Source: Lytechinus pictus
Taxonomy: Eukaryota
DNA length: 64,000 nt
Assembly: GCF_037042905.1 (NCBI RefSeq)
Contig: NC_087251.1
Location: 15,130,001 to 15,194,000, forward strand
Direction: 5' to 3'
The translations under genes were made by a program, and so were the position numbers. Below the pieces are notes generated by a model, which saw nothing but the letters and a program-made list of their open reading frames with translations, was not told where the DNA came from and did no database searches. Position 1 is the stretch's first letter. Each line of letters opens with the position of its first letter. Positions 7,156 through 61,256 of this stretch are shown here, piece after piece.

Positions 7156-7995
7156 TTGTATCCCTCTTATGAATATTCATGAGTATTCTAGATAAACGAT
7201 TGGTCAATTCGTGATCATGTGACAAAGTATAATTTCAATAGGAAAACACATCGCTGCAATTAGCTCTGTATAGCTTTCTTATAGCTCCGTATATTTTTTT
7301 ATATACTTTCATGGGCAGAACTGCGCATGCTCATGCTCAATATTTTCTCTCAACTTTGAATTGCGCATGCTCCCTGACTGATCATCCGCAAAAAGTAAAT
7401 AAAGTAAAATACAAGCTCTCGCCCAAATTACCGTGCCGACAATCTGAAAAACAGTGTGGAATTGGGTCTAGATTACAATGCAGAAAATCTAATTCCGACG
7501 GCCATTCATACAGGATCCTTTGATATGGAATAAACATACCTAACAAGGTGAGTCAAGATCCGATACTAATTTTTAGAGCATACGTTTTAACTGCGCGTAT
7601 TTATTTTTGAGTGCCACTGCAGCAACGGCAAACGCAGCGCAAACCTCTCATTAAGTGCAGTCGGGTAGAAGCCACGCGCAGCCTACCCATGGACTGTCTA
7701 GCAATTAGCTCGACACAGGCCTAGAGTAGGACTAGGTCCGGTAACGTTAGATTTGGTCGAGATTGGTTAAAAATCAGCAAGGACTAGGTCCACAAAGTTA
7801 AAGAGGGATATAAACAAATATATCAGGCGTTTCTTTCGAAAGCATAGTGGAATTATTAATCCTCGGTTGGACTGGCAATGTAACTATTTTTCCCTCGGGG
7901 CTTCGCCCCTCGGGAAAAATAGTAATTGCCAGTCCAACCTCGGATAAATAATTCCCACTATACTTTCTCAAAGCCTGATATATTTGTATAATATC
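7156..7995 (-). mobile_element. Non-autonomous element with long terminal hairpin and asymmetric inverted repeat (Crypton-like or Helentron-like; unassigned)
   Basis: IR tatccctctt (7159-7168) / aagagggata (7801-7810). ~190-bp hairpin 7807-7995 centred on gcttcgc (7900-7906). CpG-rich body. Confidence 0.65.
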
Positions 7996-12032: not shown

Positions 12033-13098
12033 TTTTTGTCTCGCCTGCATTAAGAGCAAGACTATAGGCGCCGCTTTTCCGACTGCGCTGGTGGCGGGGT
12101 CGTCAACATCAAATCTTAACCGAAGGTGTTTGAAATGTCATCATAACTTAGAAAGTATATGGGCCTAGTTCATGAGTCTTGGACATAATTGTTATCAAGT
12201 ATTACTGAACATCCTGCCAGAGTATGATGTCACATGACCAAGGTCAAAGGTCATGTAGGGTCAATGAACGTAGACCATGTTGGGGAATCAACATCAAAAT
12301 CTTAACCTAAGGTTAAGTTTTTGAAATGTCATCATAACTTAACTTTTAAAGTTTATGGATCTGGTTCATGAAACTTGGACATAGGAGTAATCAAGTGTCA
12401 CTGAACATCCATGTGAGTTTCAGGTCACATGATCAAGGTTAAACGTCATTTAGGGTCAATGAACTTTGGCCATGTTAGGGGGTATTTGTTGATTTCCATC
12501 ATAACTTTGAAAGTTTATCGATCTGGTTCATGAAACTTGGACATAGGACTAAGAGTAATCAAGTATGCTGAACATCCTTTGTGAGTTTCAGGTCACATGA
12601 CCAAGGTCAAAGGTCATTTAGAGTCAATGAACTTAGATTATGTTGGGGGAATTAGTTGAATTTCTATCATAACTTTGAGAGTTTATAGATCTAGTTAATG
12701 AAACTTGGATATAAGAGCAATCAAGTATCAGCAAACATCCTGTACAAGTTTCAGGTCACATGACGAAGGCCAAAGGTCATCTAGGGTCAACAAACTTTGG
12801 CCATGTTGGAGGTATTTGCTTACTTGCCACCATAACTTGAAAAGTTGAAGATCTAATTCATGAAACTTAGAATTTAGAGTACCGGTAATCAAGTATCATT
12901 GAACATCCTGCTTGAGATTCAGGTCACATGACCAAGGTGAAAGGTCATTTAGGGTCAATGAACATAGTATTTTATTTTCATATGAATTGTGGGTTTTTTG
13001 TTGTAAATAACTTTTCAATAGTTGTTTTTCAAAGTCAGCACTGCTGTTGTATTGAATGGCGTAATGCAGGCGAGACTGCCAGAGGCGTTCCTCCTGTT
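12033..13098 (+). mobile_element. Helentron-associated non-autonomous element (HINE/Tsp/pearl-like) with five internal ~165-bp tandem repeats
   Basis: T-run start; perfect 15-bp subterminal IR gtctcgcctgcatta (12038-12052) / taatgcaggcgagac (13062-13076); partial 5' IR partner gcaagac; short GC microsatellite; five repeat units; short 3' tail. Confidence 0.8.
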
Positions 13099-15873
13099 CT
13101 GTAAAGGCCCTAGAAAACACTGTATGCTTTCCTATATATATGTACATATACCCTTACTTCTCATATAGATATGTATTGTCCCATTTACACAAATTGATGA
13201 TTTGTAGCGATTAATCCAGACCTCATAGTTTGCACTCCAGAGGTAACACTACATGTATCTCTATTTCATAACACTTGTGATGCAAGAAGAACGGTCAAAT
13301 TAATGACAAGTTTGCCTATGTGTATATCAAATCAAGTCTGAGGATATTATAAGCTTTTTAAAAAAAAAGGGATCTATGATTCACATAAAATTTGAATATC
13401 CTTCTAGTCCTGAGCAGGGATTGTTTCTTTCATTAAAATCATTCCTACCTACCACCTGAAATGATCCTTTATTGTCTTAGTTGTTTAGGGCATTCATCGT
13501 AGTTTTACTCATGCACAATATGATTCCAAATAAAACTTGTGAGAAATTGCAACAAATTTATTCTGTCATATTGCAAGCTGTATTTTTCATCACAATTTAG
13601 ATAAGATTAATGAAAATACAGTCATTCTTCATTAATTTGTCAGGATGAACTTTGGACACCCTTTAGTGCTTCTTGAAATTCATTTGTAACATTATGAAAG
13701 CTTTATGAAACTACTCTCAGTTGGATATCTTACGCAAGCAGTGATTCAAGGCAACTTCGACCAAGATATTACAGAATGGATGAAACTCATTGCTCATCAC
13801 CTCCTCACATCAAATTAACTTAAGTCTAAATTTAGTTCTCATTGGGCAAATTTTCCTGGAGCAGATGTATCATTCGGCAGAAAGTATCACGCCATTTTGA
13901 CGCCTTTGGTGAAAATTGAGATTAAATTGAAGACTTTCAAGATATTGAATGATAGAAGTTCTTAAGGGTCTTCGTTGTAAGATTTTGGGGGAAATCCCAT
14001 TGAAACTTGTTGCATGTAGTGCTTCAAATGAATATCAGTGTATTTGTCTGTGTGATCTTCAGGCCAATATTATTGTTCGATTAGCAGCTTAAGGTGGTAT
14101 TTTAAACATTACTAGTGATGCTTACTAGGTCCCTGGATGAAGATAAAGGCCATTCTGGTGTGGCTCCTAGATTTGTAATTTTGTAGTATGTTTGTATTGT
14201 GAGAACTTGTAGTGTGTTTGCTAATTGAATTTGAATCTCATATCTGCATTATCGTCATCATCATTATCATCAATAACTGATATGATTGTAAATTACTTTG
14301 ATTGACATTATTTGACTTGTATGAAGAAGAGAGCCATTTTATTGAATGATTTGAATAGAGTGATCCATTTGTATCTTTTGAAAGTATTATGTTAACATTC
14401 CCATGTATATTATTTTATTTTATTCACTCTACACATTGTTTTGATTTTTTGTATGATGAATAAGCCCAAACCAAAACAAAAACAGATATTAAAACAATAG
14501 AAGAAGATATTTTGACTATGCTTTGAGTCCTTTATCTATAATTTGGCTTTGTGTGTACAATCATTTTAAATCATTTTCTTTCTTCAAATCTAAGAAATGA
14601 TGATTTAAACTCATATCATCATTTGATGAGATAGGCCTGGTGGAGACATCACCTTTCATCTTTTCCAGGGTTCATGAATGTGAAAAACAAATTGATTCCC
14701 ACCCCATCTATAATAATTCAAAGGGATGTGTATATTTATGGTCCTCACTGGTTAGTGAATTACATGTAAACACCAGCCTGATTAATGAAAGCTATTTTTG
14801 CATCCCAGGAGAGCATTGTGCCAGTCAGTGATGAGTGTAGGAATGTAAACAGAGATCATAAATCATCGTCAGAAAGCCATTTTCTAATGAGTATTTGCAG
14901 AGTTCATTTACAAGTCGCTCCCAGTATTTATGGGTATTTAAATAGGCTATTTCTGGAAATGAGATTGTGAAAGAGTAGGAGAATGAGAGAGTGAGAGAGG
15001 TATGAATGGGGGAAATCGGGTTGTGCTTTACTGTAATTTATCAAAAAGTATGTACACTTTCACAAGTAATATATGTCCTTTTAGTATTTGAATAAAATTT
15101 ACAAATGATAAGGTTGCTGGATGCTCACACTCACTTTCTTGTTTTTTCAATCAACATTTTTTAACAAATAAAACTTTACCGCAGCTTGTTTCTAATTCAA
15201 TTTTTCACAGGTGTACACTCCAAGTGATTTAGTCATTCTTGGGTTGTATTAGGCAGAATAGTATGCAGTGGCATGTCTTGAAGTCAGATCTGAAAATTTC
15301 TTGATTGTTATCGCACAATATCTGTGTTTTGGTGTTGGCGTTTTAATTTGATCCATCTTTAGAAAACCGCTAAATACATCTCATGAAATAGCAGGAACAC
15401 ATCAATTACAAAACCACTTATAACTCTTCTGAGGATTTCCCCCATAAGTATTCGTTTAAATGAGAAGGGACAACTGATAAAAGCAGGAATGGTTGATTCC
15501 ATGAGGGATTCAGAATCAACCATTTTTTATTAAGATTATTCCTCCTTTCCTTTCTTCATTGCTGGCATGGAGTTTTATTGCCATTATTCATACCTAATGG
15601 TTATGATGGGTTGTGTAATATATATTTTTTCTACTTTGAATTCTAGTATTAGTTGATGTGTACACTTTTGTGAACAGCAAAAGATAACTACATGACTACG
15701 TGTAGGCCTATGTGTATACATAATATGACAAACCAGGCAAAAAAATAGTTGTTGTTTTGGGGAGGCTTCTTTTCACAATCTACTGCCTAAATCTGTGTGG
15801 TTGGATAAGCTTTAACATTGTAGTGAATGGGAAAATTACAGGGCTCCTTTTCCATTTCCTAGGGCTTTTTTAA

Positions 15874-16448
15874 AGGACAAGTCCACCCCAATAAAAAGTT
15901 GGTTTGAATAATAGGAGAAAAATCCAACAAACACAACACTGAAAATTTCTTCAAAATCGGTTGTAAAATAAGAAAGTTATGACATTTTAATGTTTTGCTT
16001 AATTTCACAAAACAGTTATATGCACACCCTGGTCGGTATGCGCATGAGCAGACAGATGACGTCACCCATGATATATTATATGAAATATGAAAAAATTAAA
16101 TTTTCTCATCATGTGGAACAAAATTTTATTCCTCCCTGAACATGTACAGTTATTTTAACAGTTTGTGGTTAAATTAAGTTGGTCCCAATTGTCAAATCTG
16201 TAAAAATTGAAATATTGTATAATTCAAACAATAAAAAACAAAAGAATAGTGAGTGAGTAACATCATTGACTCTCTCATTTGCACATCAATGAGTTTAGCG
16301 TATAACTGTTTTGTGAAAAATAAGCAAAACTTAAAAATGTCATAACTTTCTTATTTTACATCCGGTTTTGATGGAATTTTCAGTGTTATGTTCGCTTGAT
16401 TATTCTCTGTCTATTCAAATCAACAATTTTCTTGGGTGGACTTGACCA
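15874..16448. mobile_element. Kolobok-like MITE, copy 1
   Basis: TTAA|AGGACAAGTCCACCC ... GGGTGGACTTGACCA|TTAA. ~170-bp imperfect TIRs. Homologous throughout to 49050-49649. Confidence 0.85.
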
Positions 16449-17982
16449 TTAAGCATTTTGGGTGGGGGGAATCACTCCAAGCCCCTGTGTAATTTCTTAC
16501 CTGTGACAAACATGATGACTTGCTTTTAAATAGTTATGAAAATGAAAAAAAAATGCACATGGATGCGGGTCACATTTGTAATAAGTTTCAAAGGTACTTG
16601 GAAAAATGTGCATTCATAAATATTTGTTATTTGCATAAAATCATAAGCCATGTTAAATACATGACTTACAGTGGTAGATCAACAGTATAGAAAGAAACTT
16701 TTTGAACTAAGTCATTTTTATTTTAATTTTTTTAAATTTTATTTAGGTGTTGAAAATGATAATTTGAATGCACTGTAGATAATGAGTGTACCATGAGTTG
16801 AGACTGGCATCCATGTACAAATTCAGTGTGATCTGATTTAGTTTTTCTTTTCAAGGTATTTCTTAAAAGCCCTAACGTAGCAATATACTTATATGGGGAG
16901 GCTTTTAGCAGCGAGAAGAAAGAACAGAATATTCATTGAGCTTTTATCGTTTGGTGATTTAGGGTGCATTTAGGCCTGATAGATGTACATGGTTTTGAAT
17001 GTGATATTGAATGCATTCATCATATCAATAGACAAAGACATGACCAGTACTGACAGTGTTTTACTTTCTCAAATATTTATGCTGGAAATTGCCTGATCTT
17101 GATCAGTTTGTCTTTCAGATGATATAGTAATGGTGTGGCTCTGAAGACCAGCATTGTTTTTTATTTTTTTCTCATGTTTTTCTTTATATGGATATAGTAT
17201 CCATTCATATTAGATTGTTAAAAAATTCTTGAGATCTTTGATTGCATAAAATCAGTATACCTTCAGTAGACAGGTTCAGTGTACATGTTTGCCATGAACA
17301 TGATATTGATTGTTAACTTTGACCGAGGTTAATTTGCGATGTAATTATGCAAACACATGTGCTGTTAAATATATACATATGAATTCTAGATGTAAAAATT
17401 GTAAGTTACATGAATGTACAAGTCCCAGGTTTGAGTTGAAATATGATATTTGAATCACAGTTATGAATGTTAATTCGGATATTAATCACCTGATGAGTTT
17501 GGTGATTAGTTTGGCGAATTGCATTATTGTGATTTTTTTCTTCTTCTTGGCAGTCAGGCAAGTCTGATTTAGGTGAAGAACATAATATACTTATATAATA
17601 CATTTTAAAACATTTTGTTTTGGCTGCTTGGTTGTTTGCTCAAATTATTTGATAAAAAGTTTGCATATTCTTTATCTCATTTTGGTATATACCCCCAGCC
17701 AGAGACTCAGAGTGATAACTAAATGATGAAATAACCATGCCAATTCATGCTGATTAAAACATCTAATGTGAAAATGTTGATGTTCACAGTTCACTAAAAG
17801 AGAGTAACATTCTATGCATCAAATTCAATTTTGACAATCCACCGCACATTTCCATCACATAACTGAAGGTTGTTCATTTCCTGTATTGGTATTTATATTT
17901 CATAGGTAGAAATTTCAAAGAAAGTTAAATAATTTCTTATCAATGAGCCATCTTTCCTCTCTTTGATATATTTTTTTTGCAG

Positions 17983-27400: not shown

Positions 27401-27859
27401 TTTCAAAACGATAATCTGATATTGATAAAGACAGTCACCAAATTCTATCAAATTTCATCCAAATATTTTAAAGAAAGCATCTATAGGTATATAGACAGTA
27501 ACAAATACATTAAGAGTTAGGGAGAAGCATAGAAATAAAAATAAAAGAATATAAGAATAAGAGAATAATGATTGGGCAGACTTTCCTATGATAAATAGTG
27601 TTAAAATAATTGTTTAACCTTCTTTTTACTTTCTTTATACATATACTCAATTTACTTGATAATGTATTTTGTATTATTTTTTTTCAAATACATATAGACC
27701 TATGCCAGTTTTTATAGATGCTAATAAGTATTAATTTCTATTATTGTTGTTATTGTAGATATTATTGATACACTGTAATGAAGGACAAGTATGCATAGAG
27801 AGATACATGGGGGTGGGGGTCTTATCTACTGAAGATGTGTAAATACTATTTCACATCTG

Positions 27860-28030
27860 GGGGTCGTTTCATATAGCTGTTTTCGTAAGTTAAGAGCGAC
27901 TTTAAGAATGACTGGTGAACCTTTCTTATGCGCTAAATAATCACCATTGAACATCACTTACCACAAGAAAGGATCATTAGTTGTTCTTAAAGTCACTCTA
28001 AACTTACAAACAGTTTTATGAAACACCTAC
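27860..28030. mobile_element. PIF/Harbinger-like MITE with CTG flanks
   Basis: CTG|GGGGTCGTTTCATA ... TATGAAACACCTAC|CTG. Palindromic arms. Confidence 0.7.
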
Positions 28031-28032
28031 CT

Positions 28033-28547
28033 GATAGTATACAAATAGCAAATAGGCATGAGTGCGATAATGCAAGATTTCGCATAATGTGAAAAAAGAT
28101 GCTCTATTCAACAAGGCGTTAGCCAAGTTGAATATAGAGTGTCTTTCTTTCACTGAATGCGAAATGTTGCACCATTGCTCGAATAAGGTTATGCGCTATT
28201 TGTGTTGTACAACGCCCCAGAAGATAGCGGAAATACAAACATTTATCAAATTCATTCCTATGTTACTCTATGAAGAAAGAAAATTTTGAAAGCGAAAGGA
28301 AAATCCCTCAAATGGACATCTGATCTGCAGCAGCAATGCGCATTTCGTAACTCCAGTAAGCCCTACGCGTATTGCACCTGCATAATTATACTAAGCGCAT
28401 GCAATTTGTCAAATCCATAGTGATGTCACCTTTTCCTGACCCGTGCAACAGTACATTATGGACGGTACGTGAGCAATGGTACGAATGTTTGACATTCAGC
28501 CTCTCATTTGCTCGCGTACAACAAGCTAAGTAGGCGTTGTACAACAG
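28033..28547 (+). mobile_element. Second hairpin/asymmetric-IR element, same architecture as 7156-7995
   Basis: Starts GATAGTATACAAATA. Hairpin ~28038-28205 centred on ggc-gtta-gcc. Perfect 13-bp IR gttgtacaacgcc (28204-28216) / ggcgttgtacaac (28533-28545). Confidence 0.62.
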
Positions 28548-30723
28548 AAAATGAAGGTCTTCTTTGTGTCATTTATATTTTACCCTGTGAATTTCCCTGA
28601 GAGTCAGAGTTCATCGTTAGGCTCAATAGTCACAATTTTCCTTGGCACAAAATGTTTTTATATTCTAGGTAGAAGCAAGAAAATAATACTCTCTACTTTT
28701 TCGAGTCATATTTTTATGAACCCCATTTTGATTGAATTATTTATATGTAAGAAGGCTTTTCATTATGATTTTGCGTGGGTAGATGTGTGGAAAATGACCA
28801 TAAATTTCAGTTGAAAGGATAACCCTAAGCGATGGATTTGATTTTAAATCATGGTATATCTCTTGAAATCATCTGTGTAATCTCATTTCGACTTATTTAG
28901 ATCAGACAGGTCGCACTTCTTGTTGAATAAGTTTCTACATTTTACAGCAATATTAAATCTGAAGTCTTATCAGTCTAAAAAGAAATCACAATTTTCTTGA
29001 CACAAATATTCTGAAAACAAGGCACTCATTTCATGCAATCACAGAAAAAAAATTGATACAGATTTTGAAAATAAAAAGGCAAATTTTGGATTCTTTTTGT
29101 GAGGCATCAATATCATCTTTTCTTCACCAATTTGGTGAGTGAATTATCAATATGATTGTTAGTATGTGTTCACTGGTAGACATGTTTGGATATTCATTTT
29201 GAGTTCAAACAGGGATGGCTTATATTGATGTGAAATATTATTACTTGTATCTTTTTTAATCTCATGTTTTAGAGCTTTATAGCTCTAATTTCCTGAAGGG
29301 AGGATTTATTTTGGTGTATGTTAATTTTACAGTGACTCTTACGATGTCAAAGACCCCCACAGGCACCATTGTCTTCTCAATACTGCAAAGAGAATCTCTT
29401 CTACGCATCAGTATAGATCTTGCCATGGATATCACCTTTGTTTCCTATTGTTTCCCTTCTTTCAATGCATACCCATGCCGCTTTTCTTGAATAATTGAAT
29501 AACCCCAGGTTTCAGGCAGTAGTTTAATCATCTTAATTTGTGATCTAGGACTGTACAGACCATAGTAGCAGGCATTCATTACGCCCTAATTAGGATGATG
29601 TCACCCGTTACACATCTGCAATGCAACGTGGTACTTTTGATATCCCACAGATCATGAGTCTTTATAACTTTGCCAATTTGCAGAGTATCAGCTGTTTAGT
29701 TGCAGGTTCACTCAGAGAATATCCAGGGGTAATGTGCACTTATGGCCTACCACGCTGTGTGTGGTAGTCAGGAATACCGGATTTATAGGGTATAGATTAA
29801 GTTTAAAAATCTTAATGCCAAGGCTGATCATGTTTTGTTTAATACATGTACAGTAGGTGCATGAACATCAGCACTGATTTTGCATTGCAGAATTAAAAGC
29901 AAACAGGTTCTGTTTAATAATGGGATGTAATTTACTTTCAGAGATTCATGTAGGTAGGAAATTTATAAGTTGTAGCCGAGTGATTAATGCACTTGACTGG
30001 AAATGCAAAGTTTGTGGATTTGATTGCTGCTTTCGTGCTTATCTTTTGGCAAGGTATTTTATGTTTGGAAAAGAAGGCAATGTAGTCATGTTATGTTGAA
30101 ACAATACCGTTTTTATTTTAAATAATATTTTGACTCTCCTTTTTCAGATTTTTTTCTTCAAAATTTTATCAGTGATTTTCTGCTTTGGCATTTATCTGTA
30201 ATAACAACTTGATACTAGAATATTACCCCTCAGTTTCTAAGACCCCATTCTCATTACCTTCCTAAGACTAGTTTAGTGGAAACTAGTTTAATGTGTAATT
30301 AGAACAGTCAAAGAGGTCTTCCAAACTGTTTCAGAAAACCATCTTGTGATGTAGTTTGGAAGATCGCTTGGCCACGTTAAAATGGTTTTAGAAAGTTAAG
30401 TTGTAGAGTACATCATAATTCCATGAAATTATCCCCTGACATATATTTGACTTTCCTAAAATGTGTGAAGTGAATGAATTACCGGTATAGTTAATTAGTT
30501 GGCACAGACTCTACATGTTTATTACATTTCATCATCAATTGTTGCTTATGCATTATTTATTTCAGAACAAGATCCAGAATGTTATGTTAGTTTTTTTACA
30601 TGTTAGATAAATATGTGCTATATTAATTTTATGTGTATCACTAGGTGCATATTTTCTCTTCTTCTTTAATCATATTGCACTTCCGTATTCAAATGGTTTC
30701 TTTGATTTTTTTTTAAAATGCAG

Positions 30724-48937: not shown

Positions 48938-50097
48938 CCCAAGGGGGGGGGGGGCACTTCCATTGACGGGTGGATACCTTGCGTGACCATAGGGTTTTGA
49001 AAAGCACCTTAAACAAGTATTTGCAATGTTCTGAAAATGCAACCCTTAAACAAGTCCACCCCAACTAAAAGTTGATTTGAATAAAAAGAGAAAAATCTAA
49101 TAAACATAACGCTGAAAATTTCTTCAAAATCGGATGTAAAACAAGAAAGTTATGACATTTTAAAGTTTCCCTTTATTTCATAAAACAGTTATATGCACAT
49201 CCTGATCGCTATGCAAATGAGGAGACTGATGATGTCATCCTCTTACTATTTCTTTTGTATTTTATTATATGAAATGTGAAATATTCTAATTTTCTCCTCA
49301 TTGTCAAGTGAGGCAACAATTAATTTCTCTTGAACATGTGGAATTAGTATTGTTTAATACTATATGGTTCAGTCAAGTTGATCATTATTGTCAAATCTGT
49401 AAAAAATGAAATATTGTATAATTCAAACAATAAAAAACAAAAAAATAGTGAGTGAGTGACATAATCGACTCTCTCATTTGCATGTCACTGAGTTGTGCAT
49501 ATCACTGGTTTTTTTTTTAAATAAGCAAAACTTTAAAATGTCATAACTTTCTTATTTTACATCTGATTTTGATGAAATTCTCAGCGTAATGCTAGTTTGA
49601 TTTTTCTCTATTTATTCAAATCAACATTTGTCTGGGGTGGACTTGACCTTTAACAAGTATTGGCATGTGAAACCCTACCCTTAACAAGTATTGGAAACAA
49701 AATGGTACCCTTGACAAGCTATACCCTGAATTGACCCCCTAAACAAGTACAACGATATCTTATTGTTATGTCACTGACGTGATCACGGATGTCAACTTTA
49801 CCTCTACTTTCAGTGGGTTTAGTACCACCCCACACACCTTGCTCAAATTGGACCCTAAACACTTAATGTTGGGGCAAAAAGTACATCCTTTATAAAGTAT
49901 TTTAGTCTTTTTATATCCTCGCAAATTGGACCGTAAACACTTAGTTTTCCTAGCAAAATATATACCCTTTTTCCATTATCTTAGTGTTTTTGACACCCTT
50001 ATTAAGTTACATGTGTAACCTATCTTGAAAAAGAGATCTTTTTACGCGTTTTTGGTCACGCACGGTGATCACTTTTCAATGGAAGTGACCTCCCAGG
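48938..50097. mobile_element. CMC/EnSpm-like non-autonomous element (host of the Kolobok copy)
   Basis: Inverted ends ccca(g)n-cacttccattga...gcgtgacca / tggtcacgc...tcaatggaagtgacctcccagg. Many subterminal ccyt(t)aaacaagta-like repeats. Flanked by tgcggctg on both sides. Confidence 0.7.
49050..49649. mobile_element. Kolobok-like MITE, copy 2, nested in a CMC/EnSpm-like element
   Basis: Same sequence family as 15874-16448. Right end GGGGTGGACTTGACCT|TTAA; left end lacks ~3 nt after TTAA. Confidence 0.85.
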
Positions 50098-54550: not shown

Positions 54551-54763
54551 TACCCCTTTCATACTGCCCTCTTCATTTTTCACCGGCGAACTTCGCCGTC
54601 GAACTTCTCCGCCTCGCATTCCTCACTTTCGCACTGACATTTCTTCCCCGGCGAAAGTCAACGGGCGATTGCAGAACAAACGAACTCCTGTGTACCTTTC
54701 ATACTGGACACTTTCCCCTTGCTGGCGAACTTCGCCGGTGAAAAGCGCAATACGAAAGGGGTA
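54551..54763. mobile_element. PIF/Harbinger-like MITE with TTA target duplication
   Basis: TTA|TACCCCTTTCATACTGC ... GCAATACGAAAGGGGTA|TTA. Internal ggcgaacttcgcc palindromes. Confidence 0.78.
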
Positions 54764-56013
54764 TTAGATAGCAAATGATGTTACATTCAACATTCATTCA
54801 AGACATTAATGCAGAAGGGCATTTATTGAATTATTTTCAATTCCCTGTTCATACCACAATCCAGTACAATACAGACTAGCATGATTCATAGTCAGATTTC
54901 CAGCAATGATTCAATTAACATACATTCCAGTCCTGTGGTCAGTTTGGCTTGGCTAGACACTTCACCATGCTAAATGCTTCCGCTTGACCACTAGTGCGTT
55001 CAAGTATGTGATTGGGCTGGAGTAGTAATTTGACCATATTTGGAAAGGTTGTCTGTGGCAGTATTTCATATGAAGACGATTGGTTATAAAAGCCACCCTT
55101 CTTTGTTACTTCTGAAGAAAAAAAAATTTGTTTTTTATATTTTCTACACATTTCTGGAAAAGTGATATTATAATTGTGTTTCCTCATGGTTATCAAAATT
55201 GAAATTAAAACCCTTGATTAAAATCAGTCCCTATTTGAATGGTAGACTGATACCAATAAATTGATTTTATCAAAAGAAGATGTATTTCTGCCCTCTTCAT
55301 TTTTCACCGGCGAACTTCGCCGTCGAACTTCTCCGCCTCGCATTCCTCACTTTCGCACTGACATTTCTTCCCCGGCGAAAGTCAACGGGCGATTGCAGAA
55401 CAAACGAACTCCTGTGTACCTTTCATACTGGACACTTTCCCCTTGCTGGCGAACTTCGCCGGTGAAAAGCGCAATACGAAAGGGGTATTAGATAGCAAAT
55501 GATGTTACATTCAACATTCATTCAAGACATTAATGCAGAAGGGCATTTATTGAATTATTTTCAATTCCCTGTTCATACCACAATCCAGTACAATACAGAC
55601 TAGCATGATTCATAGTCAGATTTCCAGCCATGATTCAATTAACATACATTCCAGTCCTGTGGTCAGTTTGGCTTGGCTAGACACTTCACCATGCTAAATG
55701 CTTCCGCTTGACCACTAGTGCGTTCAAGTATGTGATTGGGCTGGAGTAGTAATTTGACCATATTTGGAAAGGTTGTCTGTGGCAGTATTTCATATGAAGA
55801 CGATTGGTTATAAAAGCCACCCTTCTTTGTTACTTCTGAAGAAAAAAAAATTTGTTTTTTATATTTTCTACACATTTCTGGAAAAGTGATATTATAATTG
55901 TGTTTCCTCATGGTTATCAAAATTGAAATTAAAACCCTTGATTAAAATCAGTCCCTATTTGAATGGTAGACTGATACCAATAAATTGATTTTATCAAAAG
56001 AAGATGTATTTCT
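54566..56013. repeat. 724-bp direct tandem duplication (54566-55289 / 55290-56013)
   Basis: Identical ORFs offset by 724 nt. Only one substitution noticed by eye (cagcaatg vs cagccatg). 2-bp ct microhomology at the junction. Confidence 0.95.
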
Positions 56014-58725: not shown

Positions 58726-61256
58726 TGAATGAATGAATGAATGAATCTTTATTTCGTTTCAATTCCGATATCAAGCAACAACAATAACAACAGTAGATTA
58801 TTGGGATACAAGTACATAGCAAAGAACAAAAGTAAATAATTACAGGATAATATACATAATACATGCACTACTTTTTATGGAACATTAGTAACACCCATGA
58901 GAACAGACGGAAATGAAACGTGGTGACCTACTAAGAAGCTTAGCTTGTGGGCCATAGGCCACCAGAATGTAAAAAAATTATATTAGCAATCATTTTAAAA
59001 CATCATAGAACAAGCAAACAAAAAATTTGAGTAAATAACCAAAGTACAGATATACATATTTACAAAAGATACACTAAAAAGTAACAAAAAGGTGAAATGC
59101 AGAATGCAAACATTCTATTAGACCTAAAGTATAAGAATCTAAAATTCAAAAAGAAGAAAGAAAAGAGGAAAATATAAAGAAAATAGGCAGAGCTCTATTT
59201 TTGCATAGATAATTGTGGGAAGAATACAATTTATAAAGTTAGACGAGATATAACAAGCAGGCATTCGTTTACTGATTTAAGTATTTCTTCAGTAAATCGG
59301 TCTTCAACTTGTTTCTAAAAACACTAAGGCTAACTGTTTTCTTCAATGAAGAAGGAAGGGAGTTCCATAATTTTGGCCCTGTATAAACGAATGTATTTAG
59401 CCGAAAACTAGTTTTGACCAATGGCAAGTGGAGAAAAGAAACTTGTCTTGTATAGTAAGAATGGATTTGGTCATTTCTAACACATAATGAATCAAGGGCA
59501 AGTGGAAGTTCTCTTTTATTTAATTGATACATAATGCAACCAAGGTTGAGATCAAATATGTCATGTAAATTAAGGAACTTGTTTTCATAAAACAAAATAT
59601 TTGTGTGAGATCGTGAACTTACTCCACATACTAGTCTAATTACCCTTTTCTGGACTTTAAATAACCCATCTAAATGAACTTTAGCAGCGTTACCCCAGGC
59701 AAGGATGCAATAATTCAAGTAAGGCAAAATGAGAGTTGAGTACAACATGCATAAAATATTTTTTGGGAATATACTCTTCAATGAATTAATGACTCCTGAA
59801 TTTCTGGAAAGAAGTTTACATAAATAAGATATGTGAACTTTCCAATTCAGCTTACTATCAATGTGTACCCCAAGGAATTTTGTACTCAAGACTTCAGTAA
59901 TCTGAACATCACTGATTGTAATATTATCTGGCAATGTTGCTAGGGTGTTGCTGAATAACATGTAGTTTGTTTTAACAAGATTTAAGGAAAGCCTGTTAGC
60001 AATGATCCATTCGTTAACAGAAATCAATTCTGAATTGATAGTTTGCAATAAATTGCAGGGGTTCTTTTCAGAAAAAAATATGCTTGAGTCATCTGCAAAC
60101 AGGATAAATGAAAGGATTTTTGAAGACTGAGGGAAATCATTAATATATATGAGAAATAAGATAGGTCCAAGGAGTGAACCTTGTGGCACTCCGCATGTAA
60201 TTGACTGCATAGAAGACTTAACACCATTTAGAAAAACAAACTTTTTTCTATCAGAGAGGTAGCTCTTGAACCACTCCAAAACCTTACCCCGGAATCCATA
60301 GAAAGATAGTTTATACAAAAGGATGTCATGGTCAATTGTGTCGAAGGCTTTGGAGTAGTCTAGGAATATACCGACAGTATGTAGCCCATTATCTTTTGCG
60401 GAAGAAATTTTGTCAATAAAATGTAACAGAGCATGAGAGGTGGTATGTTTTTCACGAAAACCAAATTGTTCAGGAGCGAGAATATTATTAATTTTCAAAA
60501 ATTTCATAACACGAACAGAAATTATCTTTTCAAGAATTTTAGAAAAACATGTAAGAAGAGAGATGGGCCGGTAATTTCCAATTTCCTGAGGGTTTCCCTT
60601 TTTGTAAATCGGCACAACTTTGGCTATCTTCATACTCAAAGGAACGATTCCATATACAATAGATAAATTGAATATATGAGTAATAGGAGAAACAATAACA
60701 TCAATAACTTCTTTAATAAGCTTATTAGATAGGCCATCATACCCAGCAGCCTTATTTGTTTTCAAATTATGAACAATGTCAATCACTTCCTTTTCAACGA
60801 CAGGAGTAAAGAAACATGAACAGGGAAGTCGATTACCAAGGTAATCATGGAAGAGTTTTTGACTTGCGGGAAGACTAGATGACAATTTATTTCCTATTGA
60901 TGAGAAGAATTGATTACAAGCGTTACTCATTTGTACATGATCTTCAGTCAAAACCCCATCTACTAAAAGTTTAGAGGGACCCTGACTCTTTTGTTTTGAA
61001 TTTAGCGTTTGTCTTATAATTTTCCAGGTTCCCTTCATATCTTTGAAGACTGACTTAAACTTTTCATCATAATATGATTTTTTAGCGTCTCGTAGTAAAG
61101 ATGTTAAAATATTCCTATAGCAAGAGTATTTCTGCTTCGCTCCTAATGTTCTCCTTAGTTTAAACTTACAAAATAGTTTATAAGTTTAAACTAAGGAGAA
61201 CATTAGGAGCAAAGCAGAAATACTCTTGCTATAGGAATATTTTAACATCTTTACTA
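58726..61256 (-). mobile_element. 5'-truncated non-LTR retrotransposon, CR1 group (Crack/Daphne/L2-like), with 5' foldback
   Basis: RT ORF on -, ~540-bp AT-rich 3' region with a stem-loop near 58920-58965, AATAAA followed by an (ATTC)5 tail at 58726-58745. Both flanks are (GGT)n-rich. Confidence 0.92.
59269..61179 (-). CDS. LINE ORF2 fragment: reverse transcriptase and C-terminal region (endonuclease lost by 5' truncation)
   Basis: 589-aa ORF with NYRPISLL, QFGFR, FLDYSKAFDTIDH, GVPQGSLLGP, LFADD and KFLGV motifs. The frame stays open upstream of the ATG (KLFCKFKLRR...KDMKGTW) to the truncation point. Confidence 0.92.
   Translation of the reverse strand, partial: KLFCKFKLRRTLGAKQKYSCYRNILTSLLRDAKKSYYDEKFKSVFKDMKGTWKIIRQTLNSKQKSQGPSKLLVDGVLTEDHVQMSNACNQFFSSIGNKLSSSLPASQKLFHDYLGNRLPCSCFFTPVVEKEVIDIVHNLKTNKAAGYDGLSNKLIKEVIDVIVSPITHIFNLSIVYGIVPLSMKIAKVVPIYKKGNPQEIGNYRPISLLTCFSKILEKIISVRVMKFLKINNILAPEQFGFREKHTTSHALLHFIDKISSAKDNGLHTVGIFLDYSKAFDTIDHDILLYKLSFYGFRGKVLEWFKSYLSDRKKFVFLNGVKSSMQSITCGVPQGSLLGPILFLIYINDFPQSSKILSFILFADDSSIFFSEKNPCNLLQTINSELISVNEWIIANRLSLNLVKTNYMLFSNTLATLPDNITISDVQITEVLSTKFLGVHIDSKLNWKVHISYLCKLLSRNSGVINSLKSIFPKNILCMLYSTLILPYLNYCILAWGNAAKVHLDGLFKVQKRVIRLVCGVSSRSHTNILFYENKFLNLHDIFDLNLGCIMYQLNKRELPLALDSLCVRNDQIHSYYTRQVSFLHLPLVKTSFRLNTFVYTGPKLWNSLPSSLKKTVSLSVFRNKLKTDLLKKYLNQ

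Follow-up and report, generated by a model that had tools for sequence, protein, structure and literature searches.

A non-autonomous CryptonA family with a one-sided hairpin and an internal mirror copy of its joined ends, and its possible transposition as a folded single strand

The window, a 64,000-nt stretch of Lytechinus pictus DNA, carries on its plus strand a 507-bp element (28038..28544), an old copy of a repeat family that we designate family A. Alignment of 30 copies revealed that conservation begins with TATACAAAT and finishes with GTTGTACAA. The window copy opens with the left terminal motif TATACAAATA (28038..28047), the crossover point being the 28037/28038 boundary, and continues as a long hairpin (28041..28203) whose arm a starts at 28041 and whose arm a' runs to 28203. 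The end of the hairpin overlaps an internal mirror copy of the joined ends (28190..28216), composed of a', one base (28204) and b (28205-28216), and the element closes with the right terminal repeat b' (GGCGTTGTACAA, 28533..28544), which is complementary to b. Outside the element lie the two halves of its target site: ATA-G on the left (28033..28037), which varies among copies with YA preferred at -3/-2, and on the right (28545..28554) seven spacer bases followed by TG at +8/+9, as given in the flank table, where the window copy is L001.

The original prediction had started this element at 28033, five bases too far to the left, since GATAG is target DNA. It had drawn attention to a 15-mer there with 14/15 identity to a second 15-mer in the window, and these are indeed each other's sole match within one mismatch in the window; the match overshoots the element boundary by five bases, which are alike because both families prefer ATA-N targets, and the ends are not of the ordinary TIR/TSD type. 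The hairpin, anticipated as about 165 bp, is 163 nt long with a stem of about 80 bp and contains three tandem G·A sites. In the window copy the facing doublets read GA/GA at 28060-61/28181-82, AA/GA at 28086-87/28155-56 and AA/AA at 28113-14/28125-26, the last of these lying in the apex (28113..28126; consensus CGAGGCGTTAGCCGAG) beside a GGC/GCC stem with a GTTA loop, in the arrangement that had been described. The 30-copy consensus has GA/GA at all three sites, so that two of the three have decayed in the window copy, in line with the CpG decay that had been suspected. The inverted repeat, thought to be a perfect 13 bp, is present as a perfect 14 nt (28203-28216/28533-28546), 12 nt of which belong to the element.

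Searching the genome (812 Mb in 368 contigs) yielded 501 exact left ends of family A and none of the reversed-pattern control, and 40 of 40 scored matches were near full length (the best 40 of 1,242 candidates); family sizes here are exact-pattern counts or top-40 matches. In each of four runs of a related organism, roughly 92-111 contigs cease matching at 28544, and the right end of the element is joined to the same right flank in contigs of three of the four runs. The window insertion is therefore shared and old. No empty allele of the window locus was found in the related-organism contigs of the four runs, which represent at most three samples and in which rare variants are dropped. Rfam gave no match at the gathering score across 27700-28900 of the window, and a free RNA gene was rejected on that ground.

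The second 15-mer marks a family B element of 835 bp on the minus strand (7156..7990), with the layout of family A and an unrelated sequence. Its hairpin spans 7987-7814 with the apex at 7914-7892 (GC-GAA-GC loop), b lies at 7813-7801 and b' at 7168-7156, and the left half of its target site, GATAT, lies outside the element at 7991..7995. Among 30 aligned copies conservation begins with TATACAAAT at 7990 and finishes with GGGATA(T/C)AA at 7156, i.e. GGGATATAA. Genome-wide there are 120 exact left and 75 exact right ends, with none for the reversed-pattern control of the left ends; the best 40 of 1,272 candidates were scored. Families A and B are identical in their first 10 bases and have otherwise nothing in common (best BLASTN E 0.62), in agreement with the claim that the bodies are dissimilar. 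The apex pattern GA-stem-GNA/GNNA-stem-GA occurs in the window only at the A and B sites and in none of five base shuffles.

Other repeats share the window. A very high-copy inverted-repeat element with ends like GGGGGT(C)GTTTCATA / TATGAAACACCT occupies 27856-28030; it adjoins the left target half-site of the family A copy and is deeper than family A in the related organism. A near-perfect palindrome at 61093-61256 has 80-bp arms that are 98% complementary, a 4-nt loop and no G·A tandems, and a tandem array with a 54-bp unit, about 63 registers and strong GC skew extends from 32155 to about 35900. Further repeats lie at 2108-2935, 15867-16452, 49051-49656, 12191-12967 and 54564-55587; the kinds among them include a fold-back whose arms are 355 bp long, an element present twice that has inverted ends of about 135 bp, a 168-bp tandem unit and an exact duplication spaced 724 bp. 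One family A insertion elsewhere (L006) sits in the window repeat family with the ~135-bp inverted ends.

An autonomous parent of family A, 2,709 bp long, was located at G000:C5:3350406-3353114 (L063 together with its left neighbour L068). Over its left 218 bp, identity is 95-97% to five of six other copies compared and 90% to the sixth, its right 144 bp are likewise common to family A, and the window copy matches it at 87% over the first 197 bp and 89% over the last 97 bp. The parent has a single long open frame of 497 aa, oriented toward the hairpin, which matches PF12012 (DUF3504) with 42.9 bits (cut-off 29.7) and PF00589 (Phage_integrase) with 35.5 bits (cut-off 27.1). The only other Pfam match of this frame is a weak one to QRICH1, and neither GCR1_C nor a reverse transcriptase nor another transposase was detected in it; the remaining frames are just 117 and 102 aa and lie outside the Pfam scan. 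DUF3504 is a marker of the CryptonA lineage (available text of PMC3212892 and PMC13465315). Because a parent with the same ends encodes a DUF3504 tyrosine recombinase, family A is almost certainly a non-autonomous CryptonA DNA transposon, and the fallback reading in the original prediction, a Crypton-like group, was the correct one. The window copy itself is a real, old and ordinary member.

Six residues of the recombinase (R188, K219, H306, R309, H332 and Y341), which by the motifs of tyrosine recombinases would be the catalytic ones, do not vary among six family proteins with 34-46% identity to that of the parent. The closest named relatives are sea-urchin 'KIAA1958-like' proteins. The predicted structure (mean pLDDT 53) gave Cre/Tre as the top Foldseek match (E 3.5e-5), from a model too poor to weigh. 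A genome search with DUF3504 gave 30 matches, and seven loci with long frames were fetched: six have a long hairpin behind the recombinase gene and the seventh (L063) starts inside one. A wider recombinase search returned at least 102 matches, with the best 95 of 547 candidates scored, and by these matches the Crypton families of this genome evidently exceed the eight examined. Two more copies have 464-aa open frames (C7:24908276 and C6:6772285), and family D is represented among the matches by three copies with 100% protein identity, of which one contains stops. Some features were noted in passing. The recombinases of L061, L062, L063 and L065 have a long low-complexity tail followed by a conserved C-terminal motif like F.F..C.V..YN. 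A CCAAT box lies slightly inside the right end (last 90 bp) in five of six families (B, C, D, E and F, not A), a position upstream of the recombinase gene in autonomous elements, where it is likely to act as a promoter. At G000:C4:6934690-6937264, three separate DUF3504 matches on one strand have exon-like spacing, and this locus probably represents a host gene of the ZMYM/WOC type that has been domesticated, rather than a transposon.

For family B, an autonomous partner was recovered only as a decayed, one-ended candidate. One of the 75 exact B right ends (L076) lies upstream of a decayed, frameshifted recombinase gene, with 220 bp at 91% identity, and the recombinase is 49% identical to that of family A over 106 aa. 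The hairpin end is absent from the 2.2 kb fetched, and no B left end was found beside a recombinase match among the 100 of 120 exact left ends checked. L076 is thus a candidate parent, and family B probably has its own enzyme, distinct from that of family A.

Comparison of the families showed that the layout common to A and B, with one inverted repeat internal as originally described, extends to families A-F: TAT, arm a, hairpin, arm a', one base, b, body and b'. In 53 of 54 copies of A and B the first six bases differ from TATACA at no more than one position, and families C-G begin the same way. Reverse-complemented, a'-N-b reads as the right end followed by the left end, except that TAT stands opposite one base. 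This mirror rule holds in six of six families with both ends defined, despite their differing a and b; families G (L067) and H (L064), whose right ends are undefined, are outside the count. Family D seemed at first to break the rule, and a right end two bases shorter was predicted before further copies were fetched; of three such copies, one with a perfect target and one head-to-tail junction agreed and one was uninformative.

Joined ends of this kind also exist in the genome. All three adjacent family A pairs tested read GTTGTACAA directly followed by TATACAAAT, and a family D junction and an E-B junction were found in addition, the latter joining an autonomous family E element directly to a family B left end (L066:2581-2601, L069). 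That E element has a reversed hairpin with a perfect 46-bp outer stem. Within family A, an internal target, GCAACGG^TACATTTT, has been used both by an A copy (L021) and by an autonomous C element (L061:736-3940, G000:C2:69353735 onward). Since A and C share this site and E is joined to B, the enzymes can target DNA of other families. At L021 and L061 the final 97 bp of A occur as a tandem duplication, with a similar back-join in related-organism contigs, as if the internal site could serve as an alternative left end.

Target preferences were derived from 54 of the several hundred A and B copies, namely 28 of 30 A copies (leaving out L013 and L026, whose left ends are damaged) and 26 of 30 B copies (leaving out L057 and L058, whose right ends are damaged, and L040 and L054, whose flanks are duplicated). 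B sites follow TA-N8-TA, with T at -3 in 25/26, A at -2 in 26/26, T at +8 in 24/26 and A at +9 in 24/26; the full dyad is present in 23/26, and three are TA microsatellites. A sites are looser (YA-N8-TR), the full dyad being present in 13/28 and TR at +8 in 17/28 as against 2-6 at other offsets. The two families differ significantly at -3, where C/T counts are 14/12 in A and 1/25 in B (Fisher p=1e-4), and at +9, where G/A counts are 11/13 in A and 0/24 in B (p=2e-4). As their preferences differ on both sides, different enzymes are indicated. The original proposal of two families mobilised by one enzyme system therefore stands for one kind of enzyme, while the separate parents and target dyads make it probable that the enzymes themselves are separate.

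The insertion point lies one base into the 8-base spacer of this two-fold symmetric target. Cre likewise cuts loxP one base into an 8-base spacer. Spacers of 6-8 bp are given for tyrosine-recombinase sites of this sort in the available text of PMC3212892. Fifty-six joined-flank queries returned 11 empty paralogous sites, three of them microsatellites; of the eight informative sites, seven align with the joined flanks across the junction without a gap, and the eight revealed no target site duplication. MITE/DDE and other TIR/TSD superfamilies were rejected, as the ends differ, terminal inverted repeats are lacking and there is no duplication. Nor do the 54 A and B sites show strict 4-6 bp direct repeats at both termini, as would be expected of the fungal and oomycete types CryptonF and CryptonS. 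Homology at the crossover is weak: T at +1 and A at +2 are each found in 18/28 A sites (14/26 and 10/26 in B), T at +1 occurs in 32/54 sites overall, and the target (AYAN) loosely resembles the right end (ACAA/ATAA).

These flanks bear on how many exchanges took place. With two exchanges, about half of the copies should carry target bases at the left and TATACA in the right flank, because the exchanges span a non-matching 6-base overlap. Targets are unlike TATACA at +3 to +5, and TATACA starts the right flank in only one of the 54 copies (L002) and in none of the copies dropped from the flank set. L002 was considered as a second product class and set aside as ambiguous, its flank belonging to another repeat with the empty copy AATATAAATA. 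The elements thus have a single crossover point.

Next to its position on one side of the element, the hairpin is biased between strands. Across eight hairpins, represented by the consensus in A and B and by a single copy each in C-H, the strand beginning TATACA carries 40 G·A and 8 C·T mismatches, and 13 of 25 2x2 loops are GA/GA and one is TC/TC, counts that are not independent because the families share ancestry. The excess of G·T over A·C is not significant (15 vs 7, p=0.13; eight hairpins). Computed folding energies separate the strands only slightly, favouring the TATACA strand by 0.2-6.5 kcal/mol, with the opposite sign for E, and the loops are mostly GNA or GNNA. The strand carrying G·A is antisense to the recombinase mRNA. 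In family E the hairpin is reversed, with TC/TC on the TATACA strand, in copy L066 and in one sister, and 26 of 28 E copies have the usual orientation as judged from alignment identities. Inversion of the hairpin by a flip/flop process of the rolling-hairpin type was considered as part of the cycle and rejected for A, reversed starts numbering 3 vs 501 normal ones in A, one of the three apparently being the far arm of a normal copy, and 2/28 in E.

The same bias was seen in an outside sample of 80 recombinase loci on metagenome contigs, the best 80 of 279. A hairpin was present in 19 of the 35 loci with at least 1 kb downstream (16 had none), as against 5 of 32 upstream, and 22 downstream hairpins, from which three flagged duplicates had been removed and among which some near-duplicates remain, hold 42 GA/GA and no TC/TC. 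The complete arrangement is present at one outside locus (L083), where b/b' is 21 bp long and the site resembles TA-N8-TA. When flanked as pyrimidine-GA-purine, tandem G·A pairs are stable in DNA. GNA mini-hairpins are far more stable in DNA than in RNA, according to the available part of PMC13037366.

According to a 2026 review, the mechanism of Crypton transposition is without experimental demonstration (PMC13565253). Taking the above together, we consider it fairly probable that these elements are CryptonA transposons moved as folded strands, in trans, by the tyrosine recombinase of the family's own 2.7-kb parent. When the TATACA strand is unwound, a and a' would pair into a long hairpin, which tandem G·A pairs would hold together with a GNA/GNNA cap, and b would pair with the far end b', so that both ends would meet on the internal a'-N-b splint. 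Joining of the right end to the left end on the TATACA strand would free a single-stranded circle, the other strand could retain the element, and copies would increase. The joined ends and the splint on the folded circle, with TAT bulged opposite one base, would then serve as the donor site, and landing would occur one base into the 8-base spacer of the symmetric target without duplication, as seen in the sequences. Only the TATACA strand would be exchanged, and replication or repair would resolve the junction, as for integron attC x attI and CTX phage. Each family would have its own enzyme and its own a and b sequences. For the central step, action of the recombinase on a folded single strand with exchange of one strand only, we incline slightly towards acceptance. 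An enzyme that reads structure plus a short terminal motif would fit all the findings. Head-to-tail junctions can also come from insertion at an existing end.

The main rival is a conventional Crypton pathway, in which a double-stranded circle would undergo two strand exchanges over a very short stretch (TA or less) and the hairpin and internal repeat would be accessory recombinase-binding sites, a cruciform or a transcription stop. We regard it as rather unlikely, though it has points in its favour. The double-stranded circle is the standing Crypton model (PMC13565253 and the available text of PMC3212892), a circular intermediate is described for Starships in the available text of 10.64898/2026.09.21.753150, T at +1 and A at +2 are favoured in family A, the parent-type elements examined have their hairpin just downstream of the recombinase gene, and in two E copies the hairpin is reversed. 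Against this, the crossover does not fall at the centre of the dyad, and of the second product class that this pathway predicts there is at most one case in 54. The spacers also disagree: the double-stranded junction has 9 bases, the targets have 8 and the splint strand has 7. Duplex binding sites, moreover, would need no one-strand G·A mismatches, and it is the strand antisense to the recombinase mRNA that carries G·A.

A DIRS-like route, in which the mirror copy would splint a linear single strand and the circle would be made double-stranded, perhaps by hairpin priming of the second strand, before ordinary integration, appears improbable; its extreme form would invoke cDNA made by a reverse transcriptase in trans. 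The geometry of a'-N-b is the same as that of the DIRS-1 ICR, which is complementary to both extremities and essential for transposition (available text of PMC7192593), and mini-hairpins are found at single-strand priming origins (available text of PMC13037366). However, a reverse transcriptase frame is absent from the parent, whose other frames are those of 117 and 102 aa, the DIRS ICR is described as exactly complementary whereas a fixed TAT-vs-one-base bulge lies at the crossover here, and the single crossover would be left unexplained. A DIRS-1-like retrotransposon proper was rejected for lack of reverse transcriptase/RNase H, gag and inverted LTRs (parent frame, Pfam). That a single enzyme moves both A and B through the shared motif and structure is equally doubtful, the identical first 10 bases, the site shared by A and C and the E-B junction being outweighed by the separate parents with recombinases 49% identical, the significantly different target dyads and the family-specific b/b'.

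Returning to the folded-strand reading, its extension to animal CryptonA in general, as eukaryotic single-strand recombination elements with a folded-strand donor site and replicative transposition, seems to us evenly balanced. If the model is true, a pathway of the integron/CTX phage type, known from bacteria, would also operate in animals, through a compact natural enzyme inserting single-stranded DNA at short loxP-like dyad targets. It would also explain how Cryptons gain copies despite clean excision, as in Chlamydomonas, where copy number increased though excisions were clean (available text of PMC9977147), and would provide a structural tie to DIRS elements. The locus yields exact ends, the donor-junction sequence, a target rule and candidate open-frame enzymes, which render the Crypton mechanism testable.

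Eulor5/Eulor6 and salmon non-autonomous Cryptons may carry a similar hairpin. By their description in the available text of PMC5753468, Eulor5/Eulor6 and, from salmon, Crypton-N1_SSa as well as CryptonA-N2_SSa are non-autonomous Cryptons with conserved termini and in this resemble the present families. The published CryptonA of animals, as far as the available text of PMC3212892 extends, agree with them in having one DUF3504-type tyrosine recombinase gene, no target duplication and occurrence in sea urchins, in an overall size of about 2-2.7 kb (published elements of 2,073, 2,263 and 2,289 bp) and in abundant short derivatives, such as one of 554 bp in medaka. That founding survey could not define the ends of animal Cryptons, which by its description have no terminal repeats and are entered with ends 'n.d.' in supplement rows, and its available text contains neither 'hairpin' nor 'palindrom'; here the ends are exact, a hairpin stands on one side only, an inverted repeat lies inside the element and the target is a dyad. 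Within the available parts of the Crypton literature on hairpin, palindrome, single-strand and circular-intermediate topics, a scope that omits most subscription papers, the layout is undescribed; prior annotation, for example in Repbase or Dfam, is possible. A tyrosine recombinase that inserts site-specifically, with no true target duplication, is also described, in the available texts, for CryptonF of Chlamydomonas (PMC9977147), Glomhopper CryptonA (PMC13465315) and Starships (10.64898/2026.09.21.753150), which have short direct repeats or microhomology of 4-6 bp, whereas no strict direct repeat is present here; the word 'hairpin' is absent from the available Glomhopper and Starship texts.

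Among more distant systems, DIRS-1 is likewise a tyrosine-recombinase element with an internal stretch complementary to both extremities, held adjacent (available text of PMC7192593). Unlike DIRS-1, the present elements have no gag, reverse transcriptase, RNase H or LTRs, and their splint of about 27 nt has a fixed bulge and forms the base of a long hairpin. The attC x attI recombination of integrons (PMC3458562) and CTX phage integration (PMC3089051) share, in their available texts, a tyrosine recombinase acting on a folded single-stranded donor, with one strand exchanged and replicative resolution; here, use of a single strand would be the corresponding step. Unlike integrons, the copies are dispersed in a eukaryotic genome and have their own DUF3504 recombinase, with no IntI, attI platform or cassette array, and unlike CTX phage they have no XerCD/dif. 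In contrast to both, the donor site of these elements forms only once the two ends join.
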